From the sequence record MK373774.1: DNA of 64,000 nt. One strand, given 5' to 3'. This document shows positions 2,520 through 10,970 of this stretch, in pieces. Under the pieces are notes generated by a model. It was given only the letters and a program-made list of their open reading frames with translations. It was not told the DNA's origin and made no database searches. A program made the translations under genes and the position numbers. Every line of letters begins with the position of its first letter. The first letter of the stretch is position 1. This DNA comes from Escherichia phage vB_EcoM_WFL6982.

Positions 2520-3620
2520 TTACGCTGTGAAGATTTTATCCCACATCGCAACAACTGCATCTCGATTATACTTCTTCCATACTGCTTCAGCACGTTTAAC
2601 TCGAGCTTCGTATGTGTCAGTGAATTCTAATACAGCTTTTGTGTAAAGCGCAACTACTTCTTTCTTAGGAGTAGAGGAATCAATTTCTACACGCACTGTA
2701 TCTGGGTCGTATTCGAATGTCGCATGAGGATAATCCTTAAAAACTAACTGGATTACAGGGACACCTTTAGAGATGGCTTCAATAGAACTATTCTCTACCG
2801 TACCTGTGTCAGGACACGTATTAATAAGTGCTTTAGCTGTTTTAAGACGTTCCATAATTTCACTGTGTGGAGCATCAATAATAACAGGATATTTAGCTGG
2901 TGGTGCCCATTTACTAGGACAGTATCCTGCACCATTTTCGCCTAGTGCTTTAATCGCTTCAAGAGCAACATCAGTACGACGCATTTTAGTGTCATAACGT
3001 TGTGCACTAATAATCAGATCAGTCGCTGGAAGAACTTCAGGTTTCTCATTCAAACAAATAACCGGATAATCTTCGGCTTCAAACAACGGATTTGCTCGCC
3101 AATAATCATAATCAATTTTGTCAGTCAGACCTGAAGTCATATAACAATATTTACGTTCAAATTCACGGAAGGCTTTAGTAGGAGCATAACTCTTACCACC
3201 ATTCTTATGAATTTGAATAGTCTGGTCCCAAATTTGAACAATGCCACGAGATACCGGTTCAAATGGTGTTGCCATAAAATTCTTATGAACTTTAGAGAGA
3301 CCTGCGTCTTTAATTGCCTGAACGGTTAGTTTAGTCGGTTCCATAGTAACAACAAAATCGTATTCATGGATGCCGGCTAGTTCAACAATCTTACGAGCCA
3401 TAGTATAACTCATACCTAGACCGAATTTAGTCAGATGACCAACAGGATGATGATTAACCTTCCAATCACCAAATGTGTCATTATCAAAACCAATATAATC
3501 AATATCGGCACCGATGGACACAAGATATTTCAACACATTTAAATGTACTGCTTCAAGACCACCTTGTACACGGTCAGGATTAAATGGGACTGCACGAGAT
3601 GGGATAAACATAACTTTCAT
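2520..3620 (-). CDS. putative glycosyltransferase (candidate 5-hmC sugar transferase, arabinosyltransferase-like)
   Basis: 366-aa ORF inserted between rIIA.1 and gene 39 where T4 has no such gene; N-terminus MKVMFIPSRA.. resembles a GT-B-type glycosyltransferase start; phage lacks alpha-gt/beta-gt homologs. Confidence 0.65.
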   Translation of the reverse strand: MKVMFIPSRAVPFNPDRVQGGLEAVHLNVLKYLVSIGADIDYIGFDNDTFGDWKVNHHPVGHLTKFGLGMSYTMARKIVELAGIHEYDFVVTMEPTKLTVQAIKDAGLSKVHKNFMATPFEPVSRGIVQIWDQTIQIHKNGGKSYAPTKAFREFERKYCYMTSGLTDKIDYDYWRANPLFEAEDYPVICLNEKPEVLPATDLIISAQRYDTKMRRTDVALEAIKALGENGAGYCPSKWAPPAKYPVIIDAPHSEIMERLKTAKALINTCPDTGTVENSSIEAISKGVPVIQLVFKDYPHATFEYDPDTVRVEIDSSTPKKEVVALYTKAVLEFTDTYEARVKRAEAVWKKYNRDAVVAMWDKIFTA

Positions 3621-3664: not shown

Positions 3665-5480
3665 AGGACATCCATTCTTTACGAAGTTCTGAATCATCAC
3701 CCATCAACATTTCAAAGAGTTCTTTCCAATTTTCAGGAAGTTTAACTACGTCGTACACAGGGTTCTGAATCATTTCACGATATTCTGACTTTTCAAGGGA
3801 GCCTAATCCCTTGATGTATCGAATACTATGCTTAGGCAGTGTATCTTTAACTTCTTCATACTCAGCTACAGTATAAAACCATTTTTGAGCTTTGCCAATT
3901 TGTGCAATAATTACAGGTGTTTTAACAAAGCGAATACGTCCTTGTTCAAACAATTCAGGCCAATTACTAAAGAAAGCAAGCAAAGCCGGATAGATACTTC
4001 CAAGACCGTCATGATCGGCATCGGTCATAATTGCAATATTACGATAGTTCGTATTCTCTGCCTTTTCACCAAGAATAAGACCCGTGATAGCACAGATATC
4101 AAAGAGCTCTTTGTTCTTCATCATATCAGCATATGACATACCCCAGCTATTCATCACCTTACCACGTAATGGGAATCCGCCGTGTAGTTCACGGTCACGA
4201 ACATCAATGAGATAACCAATTGCCGAATCACCTTCTGTTAAAAACAATGTCGTATCTGCATCTTTACCACATTGGTTAGCTTTAATATGCTTATGAACCT
4301 TAGCTTTAGTTGCCTTTTTAGCTGCTTTAGTTTCTGCAGCCTTTTCTGCTGCCAATTTACGAGCTAATGCTGCTTCAACAATAGGCATAATCAAGGCTTC
4401 GTTTTTAAGAAGTGCCTGAGCAATTTTCTTAGCATCTAATTGGATATGATTACGAATATCACCATACGTTGACGTTAAACGTTCTTTAGTCTGAGAATCA
4501 AAACGCATGTTGCTCATGTCTCTAATAAACATCAACATTGTGAGACATTCTTTAACACGAGCTTTAGTGACTTCAATACCCTTATATTTCTTTTTAATAC
4601 CGGGCAAAAGATGTTCGCAGATATCATCCATTACACATTCAACATGATGACCACCATTTTTAGTATGGATGTTATTCACATAAGTTAAATGACGGAAGCC
4701 ATCTGGTGATGTTGTGAATGCTATAGAGACTTTATCATTTTCTTGAATGATGTTATCTTCACCAAATTGTTTAGCAAATCGTTTAAAATTACCATCAACC
4801 TTTTTACCATTAAATGTGAACTTGATATCAGGATAAACGACTGCCAATGTTTGAAGTCTGTCTAAAGTAATATCTAAATAAATTTGAGATAAATTATGCT
4901 CTTCAAATGAAGAGAAATCAGGAGTGAAGATTACTTTAGTGCCTTTACATTTAGATTTCTTAGAAGACCATGATTTGTTTTCCATTCCGTTTGAACAGTT
5001 AACAGTGATTTCATTTTCGCCATCTGACGTGATGCCTGTAAACAACGTAGAGAAGATATTAGTTAAACTACTCCCGACGCCGTTCATACCACCAGTCTTG
5101 CGTTCAGAATCATCACCAAAGTTACCACCAGCCTTTGGAATAGTCCAGGCTGCTACAGGCCCAGGAATTTGTTCACCTGTTTGGTCGGTAACTAAACCTT
5201 GAGGAATACCACGTCCGTTATCTTCCACCAAAACTTGATTATTTTTAATTTGCACATCAATTTTATTTGCAAACTTAAATGATGTACGAATAGCTTCATC
5301 AACCGAGTTGTCAATAATCTCATCGATTAATTTAACCAGACCAGGAACATATTCAACTTGTTGATATTTACCAAACAAAAAACGCTCATGTGCTTCTTTA
5401 GCAGAAGAACCAATATACATACCACTACGTTTCTTAATATGTTCTACATCTGACAATACCTTAATTTCATTTTTAATCAT
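3663..5480 (-). CDS. 39: DNA topoisomerase II large subunit (ATPase, GyrB-like), unsplit gene 39+60
   Basis: 605-aa ORF; GHKL ATPase motifs (NSVDEAI, EDNGRGIP) and TOPRIM region (LTEGDSA); single continuous ORF, no gene 60 split. Confidence 0.9.
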   Translation of the reverse strand: MIKNEIKVLSDVEHIKKRSGMYIGSSAKEAHERFLFGKYQQVEYVPGLVKLIDEIIDNSVDEAIRTSFKFANKIDVQIKNNQVLVEDNGRGIPQGLVTDQTGEQIPGPVAAWTIPKAGGNFGDDSERKTGGMNGVGSSLTNIFSTLFTGITSDGENEITVNCSNGMENKSWSSKKSKCKGTKVIFTPDFSSFEEHNLSQIYLDITLDRLQTLAVVYPDIKFTFNGKKVDGNFKRFAKQFGEDNIIQENDKVSIAFTTSPDGFRHLTYVNNIHTKNGGHHVECVMDDICEHLLPGIKKKYKGIEVTKARVKECLTMLMFIRDMSNMRFDSQTKERLTSTYGDIRNHIQLDAKKIAQALLKNEALIMPIVEAALARKLAAEKAAETKAAKKATKAKVHKHIKANQCGKDADTTLFLTEGDSAIGYLIDVRDRELHGGFPLRGKVMNSWGMSYADMMKNKELFDICAITGLILGEKAENTNYRNIAIMTDADHDGLGSIYPALLAFFSNWPELFEQGRIRFVKTPVIIAQIGKAQKWFYTVAEYEEVKDTLPKHSIRYIKGLGSLEKSEYREMIQNPVYDVVKLPENWKELFEMLMGDDSELRKEWMS

Positions 5481-5529
5481 GTTGTCTCCTCGTTATGAAG
5501 GTATTCTATCATCCGAAATCTAAAGCAAA

Positions 5530-5545
5530 AAGGGCCGAAGCCCTT
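5530..5545 (-). terminator. UUCG-tetraloop stem-loop at 3' end of goF-like gene
   Basis: AAGGGC-cgaa-GCCCTT hairpin. Confidence 0.4.
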
Positions 5546-5969
5546 ATTTAAATTTAATTTTCTGAAGTGCATCAATTGCAGCCAAACGCCCTTGTTCACT
5601 TTTAACTGTAATGACCACATCGCCTGATACGATCACCGAACCATCAACAAATTCTATAGAGCCTTTTTTGAAATCGACAGCTGTATCTGGTTCCTGAACT
5701 TCTTCAAAGAATTTAAATTCTGCACCATAAAGCAGAATATCACCTTGCATACTATGAATAGTTCGACCATAATCGCCTACGGCTTCTACAGCAATAACCG
5801 AAACACCGTAACCAATCATCTCTTCCACAATAAAATCTTTGGACAATAAAGTAGTATGCAGATTAGTATTAAGACGTTTACCAGTCGTATTAAGAATTCT
5901 CAAGAAATTATCTTCCTGTCCTTTGATAATACGATATTTCTTACCAACTTCAAAACCTTTAAAAGCCAT
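5544..5969 (-). CDS. goF: hypothetical protein, goF-like by size and position
   Basis: 141-aa ORF immediately upstream of gene 39 as T4 goF (141 aa); no motif verified. Confidence 0.4.
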   Translation of the reverse strand: MAFKGFEVGKKYRIIKGQEDNFLRILNTTGKRLNTNLHTTLLSKDFIVEEMIGYGVSVIAVEAVGDYGRTIHSMQGDILLYGAEFKFFEEVQEPDTAVDFKKGSIEFVDGSVIVSGDVVITVKSEQGRLAAIDALQKIKFK

Positions 5970-5971
5970 AA

Positions 5972-6151
5972 TTAACCCTTCTTAAGTAAGTCGTAAAAAC
6001 CACCGTTCACATGTTTAGGAGCAGAAACCCGACGAGTAGACAGACGATGACATTCAGGGCAAACATCGTTTTCTCGTTCAGAAATCCTTTTAATTTTTTC
6101 ATATTCATGACCACAATCTTCAGATTGACATTTATAGTCGTATAACGGCAT
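5972..6151 (-). CDS. small zinc-ribbon protein (FmdB-like CxxC..CxxC)
   Basis: 59-aa [31 protein letters not shown] stop-start overlap with upstream gene; below ORF-track size cut-off. Confidence 0.5.
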   Translation of the reverse strand: MPLYDYKCQSEDCGHEYEKIKRISERENDVCPECHRLSTRRVSAPKHVNGGFYDLLKKG

Positions 6152-6582
6152 TATTGTTCCTTAAAATGTGCTTTCAACATTTGATACAAAGACCATGCCT
6201 GGTCGTTATTTTCGATAGTAATCGTCATCACCGGAAATTCAGACAATTCATCAAGTTCACCATAATCTTGCTCTTCGGGCGCTTGATATGGATTTCCAAC
6301 TTCGTCAAAGAATTCTGCTTCATTCGTGGAGAGCCAGATAAAGTTTTCATCAAGAATATCACCGCCTGTTGCGTATCCAACCATGCCAGTAGATGTCACA
6401 AGTTTAGTAGGACGTCCAAGATGGTCAACATCTAATACTTTAAACGGTTCCATGCCAAGACGTCGTGCATAAATCCCATTATCAGTGTGGTCTTTAATAA
6501 ACTCTTCTTGGGCACGTTTATCTATGAACTGATACCATTTATTAACTTCAAATTTATTAGCCATTAGTAAGTTTCCTTCCAA
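6151..6582 (-). CDS. hypothetical protein
   Basis: 143-aa ORF, acidic C-terminus, co-directional packing. Confidence 0.55.
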
Positions 6583-6836
6583 TAAGTTGTACCGTTTTCA
6601 GTGATTTCACGGAAGATACCATAGATAGGCATTTCATCGCCGAGTTTTTCGTAAACGTAAACCACTTCGGTGTAGCATAAAAATTCAGTCCAGTTTTTCT
6701 GTACAACAACTAAATCAGGATTAAACAGAACATCTTCAAACTCATCGATGTTTGAATCAGTAGTTACGTTTTTAATGATTTGACGTTTCATAATATTCTC
6801 CTCTTGTTTTGATAGGTCTATAGTATCATAGACCAT
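6564..6836 (-). CDS. hypothetical protein
   Basis: 90-aa ORF. Confidence 0.5.
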
Positions 6837-6848
6837 AGTTGTTGTACA

Positions 6849-7373
6849 TCATTTTAGCAAAATAAAATCAACTTGTTCTGCCAATGAACGTCTAAACATT
6901 AATTGACAACTTCCGAGGATGAAATCAGGTGCTTCATAGACCGCGATGTAGTATCCTTTAGCTTTCAAGAGTTCAACATCCACCTGGTCATCAAACCATG
7001 CATAAACCGCGTCAACACTTTCAAATCCAAAATAGAACCCTTGAGCCCAATCTTCGTTCAATTCAAATGTGTGCTCAATTCTATAGTATCTTAAAATATT
7101 TTGTTCAAGGAGTTTGTCTTCATTTACTGTAGGACGATTAGGGACATTATAGTTGTCGCCGTGATGGTAGAAGTTACCTGAGAGTATTCCATGCTTATCA
7201 AGGAACTCCCATGTTTCTTCAGAGTTGTCGGTGCCTGACCAACCGTATGGCGAACGAGGTTCTTTATTCCAAGAGGTTTCCCAAATTCTGACGGCTTTAC
7301 CGTCTTCGATAGCAATTCCTGGTAATGATTCACGTTGAGTACAAAAACTACGTTCTACGCGGTAAACTAACAT
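6849..7373 (-). CDS. hypothetical protein
   Basis: 174-aa ORF with early promoter immediately upstream. Confidence 0.6.
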   Translation of the reverse strand: MLVYRVERSFCTQRESLPGIAIEDGKAVRIWETSWNKEPRSPYGWSGTDNSEETWEFLDKHGILSGNFYHHGDNYNVPNRPTVNEDKLLEQNILRYYRIEHTFELNEDWAQGFYFGFESVDAVYAWFDDQVDVELLKAKGYYIAVYEAPDFILGSCQLMFRRSLAEQVDFILLK

Positions 7374-7398
7374 ATTATTCTCCTCTGGTTGATGTGGT

Positions 7399-7427
7399 TA
7401 TAATATCAAAACCAGAGGAGAAGTAAA
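7399..7427 (-). promoter_or_regulatory. T4-type early promoter
   Basis: minus strand GTTTAC-17nt-TATTAT, about 25 nt upstream of ORF start 7373. Confidence 0.6.
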
Positions 7428-7432
7428 CAACT

Positions 7433-7852
7433 TTATGCAAAAGATGCTGGACAATATTTTTTGATTTGGAACTCAGGAACTACCATGAACTGTCCAGCGA
7501 AAACGATGTTATAAAGCTTAGCACCATCTTCAACCCATTGGTCACTAATGAAGCCGGCGATTTGCTTAGTTTTCCATGGCGTTCCATCAGTTGCCGCAGC
7601 AATAGTAAATTCATGGTCTTTTACAACTAAAACAGACCTGCACAGTTTCCATTTGAACGCACGTTCTTCTGGCTCAATGAACTGGCTTGAGACGTAGCCA
7701 ATATTACCATTAGCGTCACGAACTTTAACTTCGTTACGTCCAAAAACCGGATCACTCACAGAAAGAACTTCAACCAACTTCCCGGCAACTTTAGAGCGAG
7801 AAGCAACAGATACATATACGTAATCACCTGTAGAGAGATTTACAATATTCAT
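7433..7852 (-). CDS. hypothetical protein, member of 3-gene tandem paralog family
   Basis: 139 aa; shares N-terminal (SRSKxAGKLVEV) and C-terminal (GFISDQWVEDGxKLYNIVF) blocks with the two following ORFs. Confidence 0.6.
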   Translation of the reverse strand: MNIVNLSTGDYVYVSVASRSKVAGKLVEVLSVSDPVFGRNEVKVRDANGNIGYVSSQFIEPEERAFKWKLCRSVLVVKDHEFTIAAATDGTPWKTKQIAGFISDQWVEDGAKLYNIVFAGQFMVVPEFQIKKYCPASFA

Positions 7853-7861
7853 AATAATTCC

Positions 7862-8347
7862 TTAAGCTTTACGAGGAGACACATAGCGAGTGATTTCAGA
7901 TTCTTTAACAACTCGGAAGTCACCTAAGAATACGATATTGTATAACTTTTCACCATCTTCGACCCATTGGTCGCTAATGAAGCCACACATAGTATCAGTT
8001 TTGCTTGGATAACCGTATTCATCGATGAAGTCAAATTCTTTATCAGTCTGGAATTCAACACCTTTACACAAGGCCCATTTGAACTGTACATTAGGCTCTG
8101 TGGATTCAACTTTTTCTCTTGAAGCAAAAGCACTACTCGCAGGAGTTTCCAAGAACTTTGCACGAACATAAGCGAACTGAGTTTCCCTCGACCCAAGACT
8201 AGGAATAATACGAACTTTTACCTCAGAATCTTCATCTTTAACGCCTTCTTTAAGTTGAATACTTACAACTTCGACCAATTTTCCTGCTGCTTTAGAACGA
8301 GATTTGTTAGATACGCGAACGATTTCACCAATAATACCAAGATTCAT
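7862..8347 (-). CDS. hypothetical protein, member of 3-gene tandem paralog family
   Basis: 161 aa; conserved blocks shared with 7433..7852 and 8409..8903. Confidence 0.6.
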   Translation of the reverse strand: MNLGIIGEIVRVSNKSRSKAAGKLVEVVSIQLKEGVKDEDSEVKVRIIPSLGSRETQFAYVRAKFLETPASSAFASREKVESTEPNVQFKWALCKGVEFQTDKEFDFIDEYGYPSKTDTMCGFISDQWVEDGEKLYNIVFLGDFRVVKESEITRYVSPRKA

Positions 8348-8376
8348 AATTTTCTCTCTTTGTTTAAGTTGAATTC

Positions 8377-8406
8377 ATTATACTCCATCCATCCTTGGAT
8401 GTAAAA
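8377..8406 (-). promoter_or_regulatory. early promoter with palindromic spacer (variant copy)
   Basis: (G)TTTTAC - CATCCAAGGATGGATGG - AGTATAAT; palindrome CATCCA/TGGATG inside spacer. Confidence 0.55.
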
Positions 8407-8408
8407 CG

Positions 8409-8903
8409 TTAATTAAGAATATTAACTACTGCACTACGTGGAACAACACTAAAATCACCAGCATGAACAACATTAATAAGTTCAACACCATCTTCAATCC
8501 ACTGATCAGTTACCCATCCACTCACTGGACCTGCGAATGGACGTCGAATTGAAACAGCTTTACACAACAAATCAGTAGGCTCAATAGGCTTAATCAGAGT
8601 ACCGTACATACAAGCGATATCCATATCAATACAGATGTCTTTAACGGGTTCTACTTCTTCAATCAACAGTTCAAAGTCAGTGCTTGGAACGGCGGTAGTA
8701 GAAATTGTACCTTGTGAATTTTTAATTTCTAAGAATAACCAAGGGCCTTCAGCTTGTTTGATGAAGTTAACAATAGTGAAACTATTACCTTGAGTGGCAC
8801 CTAAAATTTCACAAAACTTTTCATAAGCTCGCACTGAAGCACCGTACCAGTTGATTTGTTTTTCGTCTTTCAGGATGTAAGTAGCCGTAGTATTGATATT
8901 CAT
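8409..8903 (-). CDS. hypothetical protein, divergent member of tandem paralog family
   Basis: 164 aa; C-terminal GWVTDQWIEDGVELINVVHAGDFSVV matches family motif. Confidence 0.55.
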   Translation of the reverse strand: MNINTTATYILKDEKQINWYGASVRAYEKFCEILGATQGNSFTIVNFIKQAEGPWLFLEIKNSQGTISTTAVPSTDFELLIEEVEPVKDICIDMDIACMYGTLIKPIEPTDLLCKAVSIRRPFAGPVSGWVTDQWIEDGVELINVVHAGDFSVVPRSAVVNILN

Positions 8904-8934
8904 AATGTTTTTCCTGTTTGGTTAAGATAGAAAG

Positions 8935-8964
8935 ATTATACTCCAACCATCCTTGGTTGTAAAC
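8935..8964 (-). promoter_or_regulatory. early promoter with palindromic spacer
   Basis: GTTTAC - AACCAAGGATGGTTGG - AGTATAAT; 27-nt core identical to copy at 51116..51147. Confidence 0.6.
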
Positions 8965-8969
8965 TGATT

Positions 8970-9647
8970 TTATCGCTGTTTTACACTTAACGGGTCAGGA
9001 TTCTCAGGGACATCTTCAAGGCCAAGCGCATAACGCTGAGCATATTTTAACATCAAAATATCTTTAGCACAATCATGAATACTATCATGGGCAACGAATC
9101 CTTTTAGCGTACCCATCGGTAATGGACACATACTTAATCCTCGTGTCAACGAGTAAGCTTCGATTGCCGTACGAATATCGCGTTGAGCCCAGAATTTAAC
9201 CGGTTCTAATTTATCAGTATCAATATCTGGTTCAAGAACACCTTCATCACGATAGAGGTCACGAATCAAATCGACCAAGATCGGGAAGTCAAAGCTCATA
9301 CCACGGCACCACATCTGTGATTTCCATTGGTCAACTTTATTAGCTCGACAATAATCTAAAAAGATTTTAATGCCTTCAAGCGTAGTGACATCGTCTTCAG
9401 ACGGGGCCAAGTTTTTACGTGCTTCAGCCGATTGCTCTTTCCACCATTTCATAGTGGATTTAGCGAAAACTCGCTTCCCTTTTTGAGAAGCTAAATTAAA
9501 TTTAATTCGCTTACCTCGTTGAACAAGTTCTTCAAATGATTCAACAACTTCAGGGTCGGAATTATATGCAATAACCGCAAGGTCAATAACAGCCGCTTTT
9601 GATGTATTGCCGAATGTTTCAAAATCTATAATAACATCAGTGCTCAT
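8970..9647 (-). CDS. dexA: exonuclease A (DEDDh 3'-5' exonuclease)
   Basis: 225 aa; matches T4 DexA sequence as recalled from memory (IDFET..AVIDLAVIA..GFVAHDSIHDCAKDILM). Confidence 0.9.
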   Translation of the reverse strand: MSTDVIIDFETFGNTSKAAVIDLAVIAYNSDPEVVESFEELVQRGKRIKFNLASQKGKRVFAKSTMKWWKEQSAEARKNLAPSEDDVTTLEGIKIFLDYCRANKVDQWKSQMWCRGMSFDFPILVDLIRDLYRDEGVLEPDIDTDKLEPVKFWAQRDIRTAIEAYSLTRGLSMCPLPMGTLKGFVAHDSIHDCAKDILMLKYAQRYALGLEDVPENPDPLSVKQR

Positions 9648-9656
9648 AATTTTCTC

Positions 9657-10970
9657 TCAAATAAAATGGACGTCAAAACGACCACGAGTCGTGCCGACAT
9701 ACAATAACTGTTTAGCTAATTCTGAATCAGCATAATGGATACACGGTGTATAAACAAAGGCCGTGTCAACAGACATACCCTGGGCCTTATGGAAGGTTGA
9801 TACTGGTAGTGCCTTCACCTTAGTGAACATACGTTTAGCATCCCAGAATTCGCTCCATGGAGCTTTACCGCCTTTATTCCAGAATTTGTATGTTTCTGCG
9901 GTCTTAGCCAAAAACAAATTGAATTTATAAAGCTCTTCTTCAGAAGAAATAACCTTTATATCTTCTCGGATATATTCTTCATCATCCCCATATGTTTCTA
10001 CTGTAAGATTCCAGTATCGTATCATATATTCACCTGAAACACCACGTGCTTTAACGAATGTAGACGTTTCTACAGCATCTCGAATACGAACGAATTGCCC
10101 ATTATTGAAAAGCATTTCAGTCATATTTTTGCCATCTAGCTTGTACGTCTTAGTAAACGGCTCTTGTAGAACAATGACTTCGTCTTTAATAAATGGTTTT
10201 TCTGTTTCAAGAAGTTTTCGGCGAATAATTGAATTTAACTTGTCCACCGACTTATTTGTGAATGCCATCATTCGATTTTCGAAAAGGTCTTCAGGAGTTT
10301 TAACGACGTTAAAATAGTTCATCATATACGATTTAAGGTCTGTATATCCGTGAACACCGTGTCCATCAACTACTTTATCGTAAATCCATTTGCCATTACG
10401 AATATCAGTCGCAACATCAATAATTGGTGCATTGCTACGTTTAACTTCTGTAAGGTTGCATTGCACGAAGTCTTTGTGAGTGAAGAAAGGACTTAGATAC
10501 GCAGTTGATTCGCCTGGGTCTACCGGTCGAATCTGGCATCGGTCGCCGATTCCAATTACTGTACACCATTTAGGGATACTAGCTAACATTATTTTAAACA
10601 GAGAACGGTCGCACATTGACGCTTCATCAAATAGCAGTACACGACACAAGGCTAAGTCGGGAACCTTTTTCTGTTCAAACAATACGTTTTCTTCGTATGT
10701 AGTTGGGTTGATTTTAAGAATGCTATGAATAGTCGATGCTTCTTGACCCGCAAGTTTGCTTAGAACCTTTTTAGCAGCATGTGTAGGGGCTGCTAAAATA
10801 ATACCTGATTCTCCTGAAGAAATAAGAGCTTCAACAATAAATCTAGTAAGGGTTGTTTTACCTGTACCAGCCGGTCCATTAATAGTTACATGATGTTTCT
10901 TTTCTTTAATAGCTTCCATAACAACGTTGAAGGCGTTTTTCTGGCCTTCAGTCAAATCATCAAATGTCAT
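9657..10970 (-). CDS. dda: Dda DNA helicase (SF1B)
   Basis: 437 aa; Walker A GPAGTGKTT; near-colinear with T4 Dda as recalled from memory. Confidence 0.92.
   Translation of the reverse strand: MTFDDLTEGQKNAFNVVMEAIKEKKHHVTINGPAGTGKTTLTRFIVEALISSGESGIILAAPTHAAKKVLSKLAGQEASTIHSILKINPTTYEENVLFEQKKVPDLALCRVLLFDEASMCDRSLFKIMLASIPKWCTVIGIGDRCQIRPVDPGESTAYLSPFFTHKDFVQCNLTEVKRSNAPIIDVATDIRNGKWIYDKVVDGHGVHGYTDLKSYMMNYFNVVKTPEDLFENRMMAFTNKSVDKLNSIIRRKLLETEKPFIKDEVIVLQEPFTKTYKLDGKNMTEMLFNNGQFVRIRDAVETSTFVKARGVSGEYMIRYWNLTVETYGDDEEYIREDIKVISSEEELYKFNLFLAKTAETYKFWNKGGKAPWSEFWDAKRMFTKVKALPVSTFHKAQGMSVDTAFVYTPCIHYADSELAKQLLYVGTTRGRFDVHFI

Follow-up and report, generated by a model that had tools for sequence, protein, structure and literature searches.

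Probable motB.1, motB and second motB genes downstream of dexA in a Mosigvirus phage: two tandem paralogues and a domain chimera

The closest described system for the genes considered here is the motB locus of bacteriophage T4. T4 MotB, which is made early, is reported to be toxic in E. coli, to bind unmodified and glucosyl-hydroxymethylcytosine DNA tightly and independently of sequence, to co-purify with H-NS and StpA, and to raise the burst size two-fold (PMC6070864). MotB also alters H-NS footprints on DNA, and 75 host genes, approximately one-third of which belong to the H-NS regulon, are upregulated (PMC7827196). MotB and MotB.1 have a conserved C-terminal domain (C-domain) in common and differ in their N-terminal domains (N-domains), and one of the two genes was perhaps duplicated from the other; in phage RB69, two motB genes, one motB.1 gene and a peptide of 29 amino acids (aa) were described (Patterson-West et al. 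2021, PMC7827196 section 3.2). The N-domain of MotB.1 has been grouped with GoF and Frd.2 in an LSm-like fold family (Kim et al. 2025, PMC12152347). Here, we analyze three adjacent genes, which encode proteins of 164, 161 and 139 aa (W164, W161 and W139) and occupy positions 7433-8903 of a 64,000-nt stretch of Escherichia phage vB_EcoM_WFL6982 (MK373774.1; hereafter, the window). The MotB/MotB.1 cluster is already known and published, and the feature is real, if partly misdescribed in a preliminary description of this DNA.

The comparisons identify the trio, with high confidence, as the motB.1 (W164, 8409..8903), motB (W161, 7862..8347) and second full-length motB (motB'; W139, 7433..7852) genes of a Mosigvirus, all on the minus strand, that is, as members of the MotB family of early host-takeover genes, which are non-essential. 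Megablast revealed that positions 5400-9700 are 100% identical, at the same coordinates, to Escherichia phage vB_EcoM_WFK (MK373775.1; Straboviridae, Tevenvirinae, Mosigvirus), and WFK stands for this identical sequence in the locus comparisons. The three open reading frames (ORFs) exist as the preliminary description stated and are annotated as coding sequences in MK373775.1, each under the label "hypothetical protein". W161 is 58.6% identical to T4 MotB (E 2.6e-60), W139 is 37% identical to the same protein, and W164 is 46% identical to T4 MotB.1 after repair of a frameshift discussed below (E 6.6e-45). With the gathering score of PF17613 (motB, modifier of transcription) at 25 bits, all three proteins belong to the MotB family (182.4 bits for W161, 77.9 for W139 and 35.8 for W164), the match in W164 being confined to its C-terminal half. 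The MotB-like family phrog_1671 is matched by W161 (E 2.6e-69, residues 6-161) and W139 (E 1.6e-51, residues 5-139), and phrog_2333 is matched by W164 over its full length (E 4.6e-82). W161 and W139 show the features of MotB proper ("Category 1"), namely, a KOW-like N-domain, the SRSKxAG motif and the C-domain. In W164, motif search, shuffles and hhalign found neither the SRSK block nor similarity to the MotB N-domain; this protein instead combines the MotB.1-type N-domain with the PTDLLCKAV…GWVTDQWIEDGVELLNVVH C-domain that characterizes MotB.1 ("Category 2"). Synteny with T4 and RB69 places the genes at the MotB-type position within the early block from dexA to cef. RB69 and phiC120 (both Mosigvirus) carry this set of genes in an identical order, and orthologues of the trio were found in hundreds of phage genomes.

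An important question is whether the three genes arose by serial duplication and divergence, as was proposed in the preliminary description. The C-terminal block on which this proposal relied, G[FW]xxDQWxEDGxxLxNxVxxGxFxVV, was recovered in all three proteins, at aa 129-154 of W164 (8442..8519, minus strand; GWVTDQWIEDGVELINVVHAGDFSVV, located by pattern and alignment), aa 122-147 of W161 (7907..7984, minus strand; GFISDQWVEDGEKLYNIVFLGDFRVV, pattern) and aa 100-125 of W139 (7478..7555, minus strand; GFISDQWVEDGAKLYNIVFAGQFMVV, pattern). BLASTP aligned W139 and W161 over their whole length with 43% identity (E 2e-29), and the W139/W164 and W161/W164 pairs gave E-values of 6e-11 and 3e-10, respectively. 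Smith-Waterman scores for the same pairs were 231, 103 and 97, compared with a shuffle mean of ~29 (standard deviation ~5), and 0 of 2000 shuffles reached the observed values, so that the pairwise check proposed in the preliminary description came out in favor of the shared block. Family alignments extend the homology beyond the 26-residue block to the whole C-domain, a common domain of ~55-75 aa in which the MotB-type sequences carry a ~17-residue insertion relative to the MotB.1-type.

The N-terminal block SRSKxAGKLVEV, which had been attributed to all three proteins, is present in two of them only: in the KOW-like N-domain of W161 at aa 16-27 (8267..8302, minus strand; SRSKAAGKLVEV) and in W139 at aa 18-29 (7766..7801, minus strand; SRSKVAGKLVEV). 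The first 85 residues of W164 scored 23 against W139 and W161, with a shuffle mean of ~22 and with 666 and 726 of 2000 shuffles scoring equally well, and hhalign of the W164 N-domain profile with the MotB N-domain profile gave no match. The same method linked the W164 N-domain to that of W141, a GoF-family protein encoded elsewhere in the window (probability 88.9%, E 2.4e-6); the alignment with GoF alone was not significant (E 0.21), and the link is seen solely via W141. Within the window, the W141 N-domain is the nearest relative of the W164 N-domain, and W141 and GoF are themselves distant paralogues, both matching phrog_622 (hhalign E 4.6e-4). This result agrees in part with the LSm-like family of Kim et al. 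(2025), the agreement running through W141 and not through GoF alone. Since the N-domain of W164 is homologous to that of W141 and only its C-domain is shared with MotB, the sequence comparisons identify W164 as a domain chimera, with a GoF/LSm-like N-domain and a MotB-type C-domain, and not as a diverged whole-gene duplicate; by the same comparisons, W161 and W139 are whole-gene tandem paralogues. Serial duplication thus describes the W161/W139 pair and not W164. In a neighbor-joining tree of C-domains, W139-type sequences lie at the base of the MotB clade and W164 falls within the MotB.1 clade; the basal branch suggests an old duplication, the tree being weak with ~70 residues.

Structure prediction gave a consistent picture of two beta-rich domains separated by a disordered linker. 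In W164, the LSm/GoF-like N-domain covers aa 1-83, the linker aa 84-108 and the MotB-type C-domain aa 109-164; in W161, the KOW-like basic N-domain covers aa 1-66, the linker aa 67-88 and the C-domain aa 89-161; and W139 has the same two domains as W161 with a short linker. The AlphaFold2 models built from family alignments reached mean predicted local distance difference test (pLDDT) values of 78.8 for W164 and 78.9 for W161, with ~90 in the W161 C-domain, which is predicted to be a small beta-barrel. The structural matches of the models include the Tudor domains of PHF19, ERCC6L2 and SMN, as well as Spt5 KOW6-7, PWWP, chromo and BAH domains and the KOW domains of NusG and RfaH. No protein described as OB-fold or cold-shock was found among the top 60 matches of either structure search, and the models do not bear out the HHpred-based OB-fold (cold-shock-type) label given to the C-domain in 2021. 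An SH3-like barrel of the Tudor/KOW type suits the modeled C-domain better than an OB-fold. The likeness to known Tudor, KOW and PWWP barrels, such as the 53BP1 tandem Tudor and Spt5 KOW6-7, lies at the fold level only, with a sequence identity to the MotB C-domain of 9-19%, and profile searches of the PDB with the MotB and MotB.1 alignments gave no meaningful match (best E 0.31). Among 1.84 billion representative proteins, the C-domain profile had 33 hits, of which ~29 are real; the four hits in proteins of 600-860 aa were rejected as spurious, as they align solely through short repeated GYQWQKNG- or GYATEQWV-like segments (two sequences inspected, both of them repeat proteins). With these set aside, the C-domain defines a narrow family restricted to proteins of ~100-250 aa, the N-domains of its most distant members showing a textbook KOW motif.

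The W164 linker contains a 16-aa motif at aa 93-108 (8580..8627, minus strand; DMDIACMYGTLIKPIE, found with the pattern D.D[ILVM].[SCT].Y). This pattern matched 94 of the 120 hits from the MotB.1 search, compared with 0 of 120 from the MotB search; the conserved form of the motif is D[MF]D[IV]xSxY…P. The motif occurs at variable positions, including the linker of W164, the N-terminus of 180-aa MotB.1-type proteins and the linker of hybrids that join a KOW-like N-domain to a MotB.1-type C-domain; its occurrence goes with the MotB.1-type C-domain, MotB proper being devoid of it, and it possibly serves as a short linear motif for interactions. A six-frame scan gave a second match in the window (27728, plus strand), which was rejected because its flank, …QDLLTSYREQCKALW, is unlike the conserved motif.

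Comparison with T4 shows which features of the window are shared. T4 MotB and W161 have the same length, the KOW-like N-domain plus C-domain organization and the dexA-cef neighborhood in common, and the N-domain of T4 MotB is nearly that of the W161 allele in this phage; they differ in the isoelectric point (pI) of the whole protein, 9.2 in T4 MotB and 5.4 in W161. W139 has the same two domains as T4 MotB; unlike MotB, it lacks the ~25-aa linker and its N-domain is less basic (pI 6.1), and it represents a separate basal lineage, 37-43% identical to MotB proteins. No second motB copy is present in T4. T4 MotB.1 and W164 share the N-domain, the MotB-type C-domain and the position directly before motB on the transcript. 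The 143-aa T4-type MotB.1 lacks the extra linker segment of ~20 aa with DxDIxxxY…P that W164 carries, and W164, unlike T4 MotB.1, lies beside dexA, as motB.2 has another place in this phage. In RB69 (RB69p010, motB, RB69p012 and motB.1), the order dexA, motB.1, motB, second motB, motB.2, cef is that of the window, and RB69 MotB carries a different N-domain allele from W161.

The comparison also revealed a discrepancy in the T4 reference sequence (NC_000866.4 / AF158101.6), in which MotB.1 is annotated as a 119-aa protein (2792-3151 of the compared locus). Past this ORF, the next reading frame runs on with EDGVELLNVVHAGEYSVVPRSAVVAILN, the remainder of the C-domain, and the motB.1 gene contains one extra G at the junction of …CAATGGATTG and GAAGATGG… (compare window 8409-8530). 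Two reference records only match this stretch at 100%, and 13 other records (11 T4 or T4T genomes, RB55 and RB59) are one base shorter. In MT984581, MotB.1 is a 143-aa protein with a full MotB-type C-domain, identical to a sequence found on 256 contigs. The 13 shorter records and the wide occurrence of the 143-aa protein make it almost certain, as judged from these sequences, that the T4 reference motB.1 carries a one-base error, which we report as a new point. The 13.8-kDa MotB.1 reported in 2025 (PMC12152347) corresponds to this truncated ORF, and the larger part of the shared domain would be missing from it. The RB69 record (NC_004928.1; motB.1 at 3877-4373 of the compared locus) has two single-base insertions relative to WFK (window 8409-8560), which split the gene into ORFs of 132 and 29 aa and therefore explain the "29-aa Category 3 peptide" of Patterson-West et al. 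(2021); these insertions are either a sequencing error or a genuine mutation of the laboratory strain.

The trio and all other genes of this region are carried by the minus strand and are read in the order dda (9657-10970), dexA (8970-9647), W164, W161, W139, W174 (6849..7373), cef, goF (6151-6564), a zinc-ribbon gene, W141 (5544..5969) and gene 39. The trio had been described as upstream of dexA; this holds in plus-strand coordinates only, and since every gene is read on the minus strand, the trio is transcribed after dexA and thus lies downstream of it. The motB.2 orthologue is W174 (34% identity to T4 MotB.2, E 3.6e-15), which is not homologous to MotB; its counterpart lies beside dexA in T4, and in the window it follows motB'. 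W141, which matches both phrog_622 and phrog_2333, is one of the five genes between gene 39 and dexA that are composed of three recurring domain types.

The intergenic regions provide a possible basis for such rearrangements. Early-type promoters of the form TTTACA-17-TATAAT were predicted before W164 (8935..8963, minus strand; 11 of 12 consensus matches) and before W161 (8377..8405, minus strand), and these predictions fit early expression of the trio. The promoter before W164 fits the consensus TTTACW-N17-TAYWAT of promoter early stem-loop (PeSL) elements (PMC4122927), which have been proposed as mediators of modular shuffling (Arbiol 2010; Comeau 2014). W164 is flanked on both sides by a 56-nt direct repeat (8350-8405 / 8908-8963, 79% identical), which comprises an early promoter, one copy being that before W161, and a leader; the promoter cores are equal at 27 of 29 positions. 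This repeat probably serves as a substrate on which cassettes are gained, lost or shuffled. W139 starts 9 nt past the W161 stop, and the two genes are probably co-transcribed. A PeSL-like hairpin with a TTTACT-16-TATTAT promoter precedes the motB.2 orthologue (7378..7422, minus strand; RNA folding and promoter scan); its folding energy of -21.1 kcal/mol (z -4.2) was equaled by 0 of 200 shuffles. The -10 box lies inside this hairpin, which also base-pairs with the ribosome-binding site of the motB.2 orthologue. The hairpins at the two W164-flanking promoters were rejected as shuffle-like (z -0.9 and -0.3), which leaves the motB.2 hairpin as the sole convincing one. A related leader is found before cef, as an inverted repeat (6796-6814 / 7404-7422) and a direct repeat (6789-6808 / 7371-7390). 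The locus thus resembles the PeSL cassettes of T4-type phages in that intergenic early promoters fit the consensus, one of them within a strong hairpin, single genes are flanked by repeated copies, and gene-order changes between genera fall exactly at the cassettes; it differs in that the W164-flanking promoters have weak hairpins only, and recombination at these sites is deduced from the arrangement. The gene order is dexA, motB.2, motB.1, motB in Tequatrovirus and dexA, motB.1, motB, motB', motB.2 in the window, with the breakpoints coinciding with the repeated regulatory cassettes.

Another important question is whether the divergence of these genes reflects an arms race, as the preliminary description supposed, the trio then being an anti-defence or counter-defence family under diversifying selection. 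The genes do diverge more than their neighbors: among nine Mosigvirus genomes, the amino-acid identity of W161 drops to 70% where that of dexA holds at 99-100%, and the ratios of nonsynonymous to synonymous substitution rates (dN/dS) of the trio are 3-6 times those of dexA, motB.2 or cef, in an early region that is plastic and shows cassette shuffling. The comparison loci were GenBank phage records, taken singly, and dN/dS was estimated by the Nei-Gojobori method on the nine Mosigvirus loci. The values, however, are all well below 1: 0.13 for W164 (dS 0.165), 0.27 for W161 (dS 0.42) and 0.15 for W139 (dS 0.24), compared with 0.04 for dexA (dS 0.08). The C-domains gave 0.09-0.10, and the maximum, 0.58, was found in the disordered W161 linker, so that gene- and domain-level dN/dS gave no gene-wide or domain-wide signal of positive selection. 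In the trio, dS climbs along with dN.

Swapped segments are visible in these genes. Two discrete alleles of the W161 N-domain are found on one C-domain (N-domain dS 0.79): a T4-like allele, almost the T4 sequence, in WFK, phiC120 and LF82-2, and an RB69-type allele in the remaining Mosigvirus genomes compared. These alleles indicate intragenic recombination between genera. W139 forms a tight lineage, and its records in the phage collection fall into 207 with at least 80% identity, 0 with 60-80% and 570 below 60%; a W139 search of IMG/VR gave 2 loci. W139 is ~90% identical between Mosigvirus and the Tequatrovirus phages ime09, RB68, Sf24 and S1P5QW, whose flanking genes are only 70% (dexA), 65-67% (cef), 72-79% (goF) and 34-35% (motB.2) identical, and the W139-type gene always starts 9 nt after motB in the compared loci. 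This pattern indicates that the motB-motB' pair was exchanged laterally, and recently, between Mosigvirus and the Tequatrovirus subset. Because dS is high and alleles and domains are swapped, the extra divergence is attributed to recombination and not to diversifying selection. The strong conservation of W139 (87-100% identity over the 207 records) also argues against an arms race, as does the published function of the orthologue, nucleoid and H-NS remodeling, which the MotB literature cited here ties to no specific defence system. We therefore consider the arms-race explanation improbable; the substitution patterns fit purifying selection with recombinational mosaicism. The family would diversify by recombination between early-promoter (PeSL-type) cassettes and within genes, and not by fast point mutation.

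The other part of the preliminary guess, a role in host takeover, accords well with the literature on the T4 orthologue (PMC6070864, PMC7827196). By analogy with T4 MotB, W161, and probably W139, would coat DNA early, remodel H-NS binding and de-repress part of the H-NS regulon; W161 probably has the T4 MotB role in this phage, and W139 probably does too. The distribution of charge suggests how the work might be divided. The KOW-like N-domain of W161 is basic (pI 9.8) and that of W139 near-neutral, the C-domain is acidic in both W161 (pI 4.7) and W164 (pI 4.9), and W164 is acidic throughout (pI 4.5). The KOW-like N-domain is the likely DNA-binding part of W161 and W139. Since the N-domain is basic in W161 and the C-domain acidic, the latter looks more like a partner-binding or assembly module, common to the three proteins, than like a DNA binder, and MotB.1 would supply this partner with another type of N-domain, which may bind RNA.

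Several points weigh against this functional assignment. Given that W161 is acidic overall and T4 MotB basic, equal DNA affinity is not guaranteed, and the DNA- or H-NS-binding domain of MotB was left unmapped (PMC7827196 section 3.1). The MotB experiments concern T4 only and are extended to the Mosigvirus copies and the 139-aa paralogue by analogy. In T4, burst size and latent period were unaffected by deletion of motB.1, amber mutants of this gene plate with the usual efficiency, and an RNA reporter assay showed no effect of MotB.1 (PMC12152347); the protein described in that study, at 13.8 kDa, has the size of the truncated 119-aa reference ORF.

A different reading of the fold is that the Tudor/KOW-like C-domain docks on RNA polymerase, as in the Tudor-like domains of UvrD, Mfd and CarD and the KOW domain of NusG, which would make these proteins true modifiers of transcription. 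The historical transcription phenotype behind the gene name and the canonical KOW motif in the N-domain of distant family members point in this direction. Nevertheless, we regard it as very improbable: knockdown of motB in T4 does not alter early or middle transcription and the pull-downs reported gave H-NS and StpA, with RNA polymerase unmentioned, in the abstract of PMC6070864, and the fold is generic, with eukaryotic Tudor domains scoring higher. The idea that the similarity arose by chance or from composition, or that the ORFs are not genes, is refuted by E-values of 6e-11 to 2e-29 for alignments with W139 that no shuffle equaled, by Pfam and PHROG family matches, by purifying selection on all three genes and by their many orthologues.

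Identification of the trio as MotB-family genes has a practical gain in better annotation, as the GenBank record names all three "hypothetical protein", and the T4 reference error bears on the reading of experiments with the 13.8-kDa form of MotB.1. A more far-reaching scheme, which we consider possible but unlikely, is that the acidic C-domain serves as a module for docking or assembly, for instance with H-NS/StpA or among the paralogues as hetero-oligomers, carrying interchangeable heads, KOW-like for DNA or LSm-like for RNA, and accompanied by the mobile 16-aa motif, so that the three genes would form a modular anti-silencing toolkit assembled through promoter-cassette recombination. If this scheme is true, the published work on T4 MotB.1 used a protein without the module, as a consequence of the reference frameshift. 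The predicted Tudor/KOW-type barrel and the acidic C-domains lead to a testable split, in which the N-domain would contact nucleic acid and the C-domain a partner.

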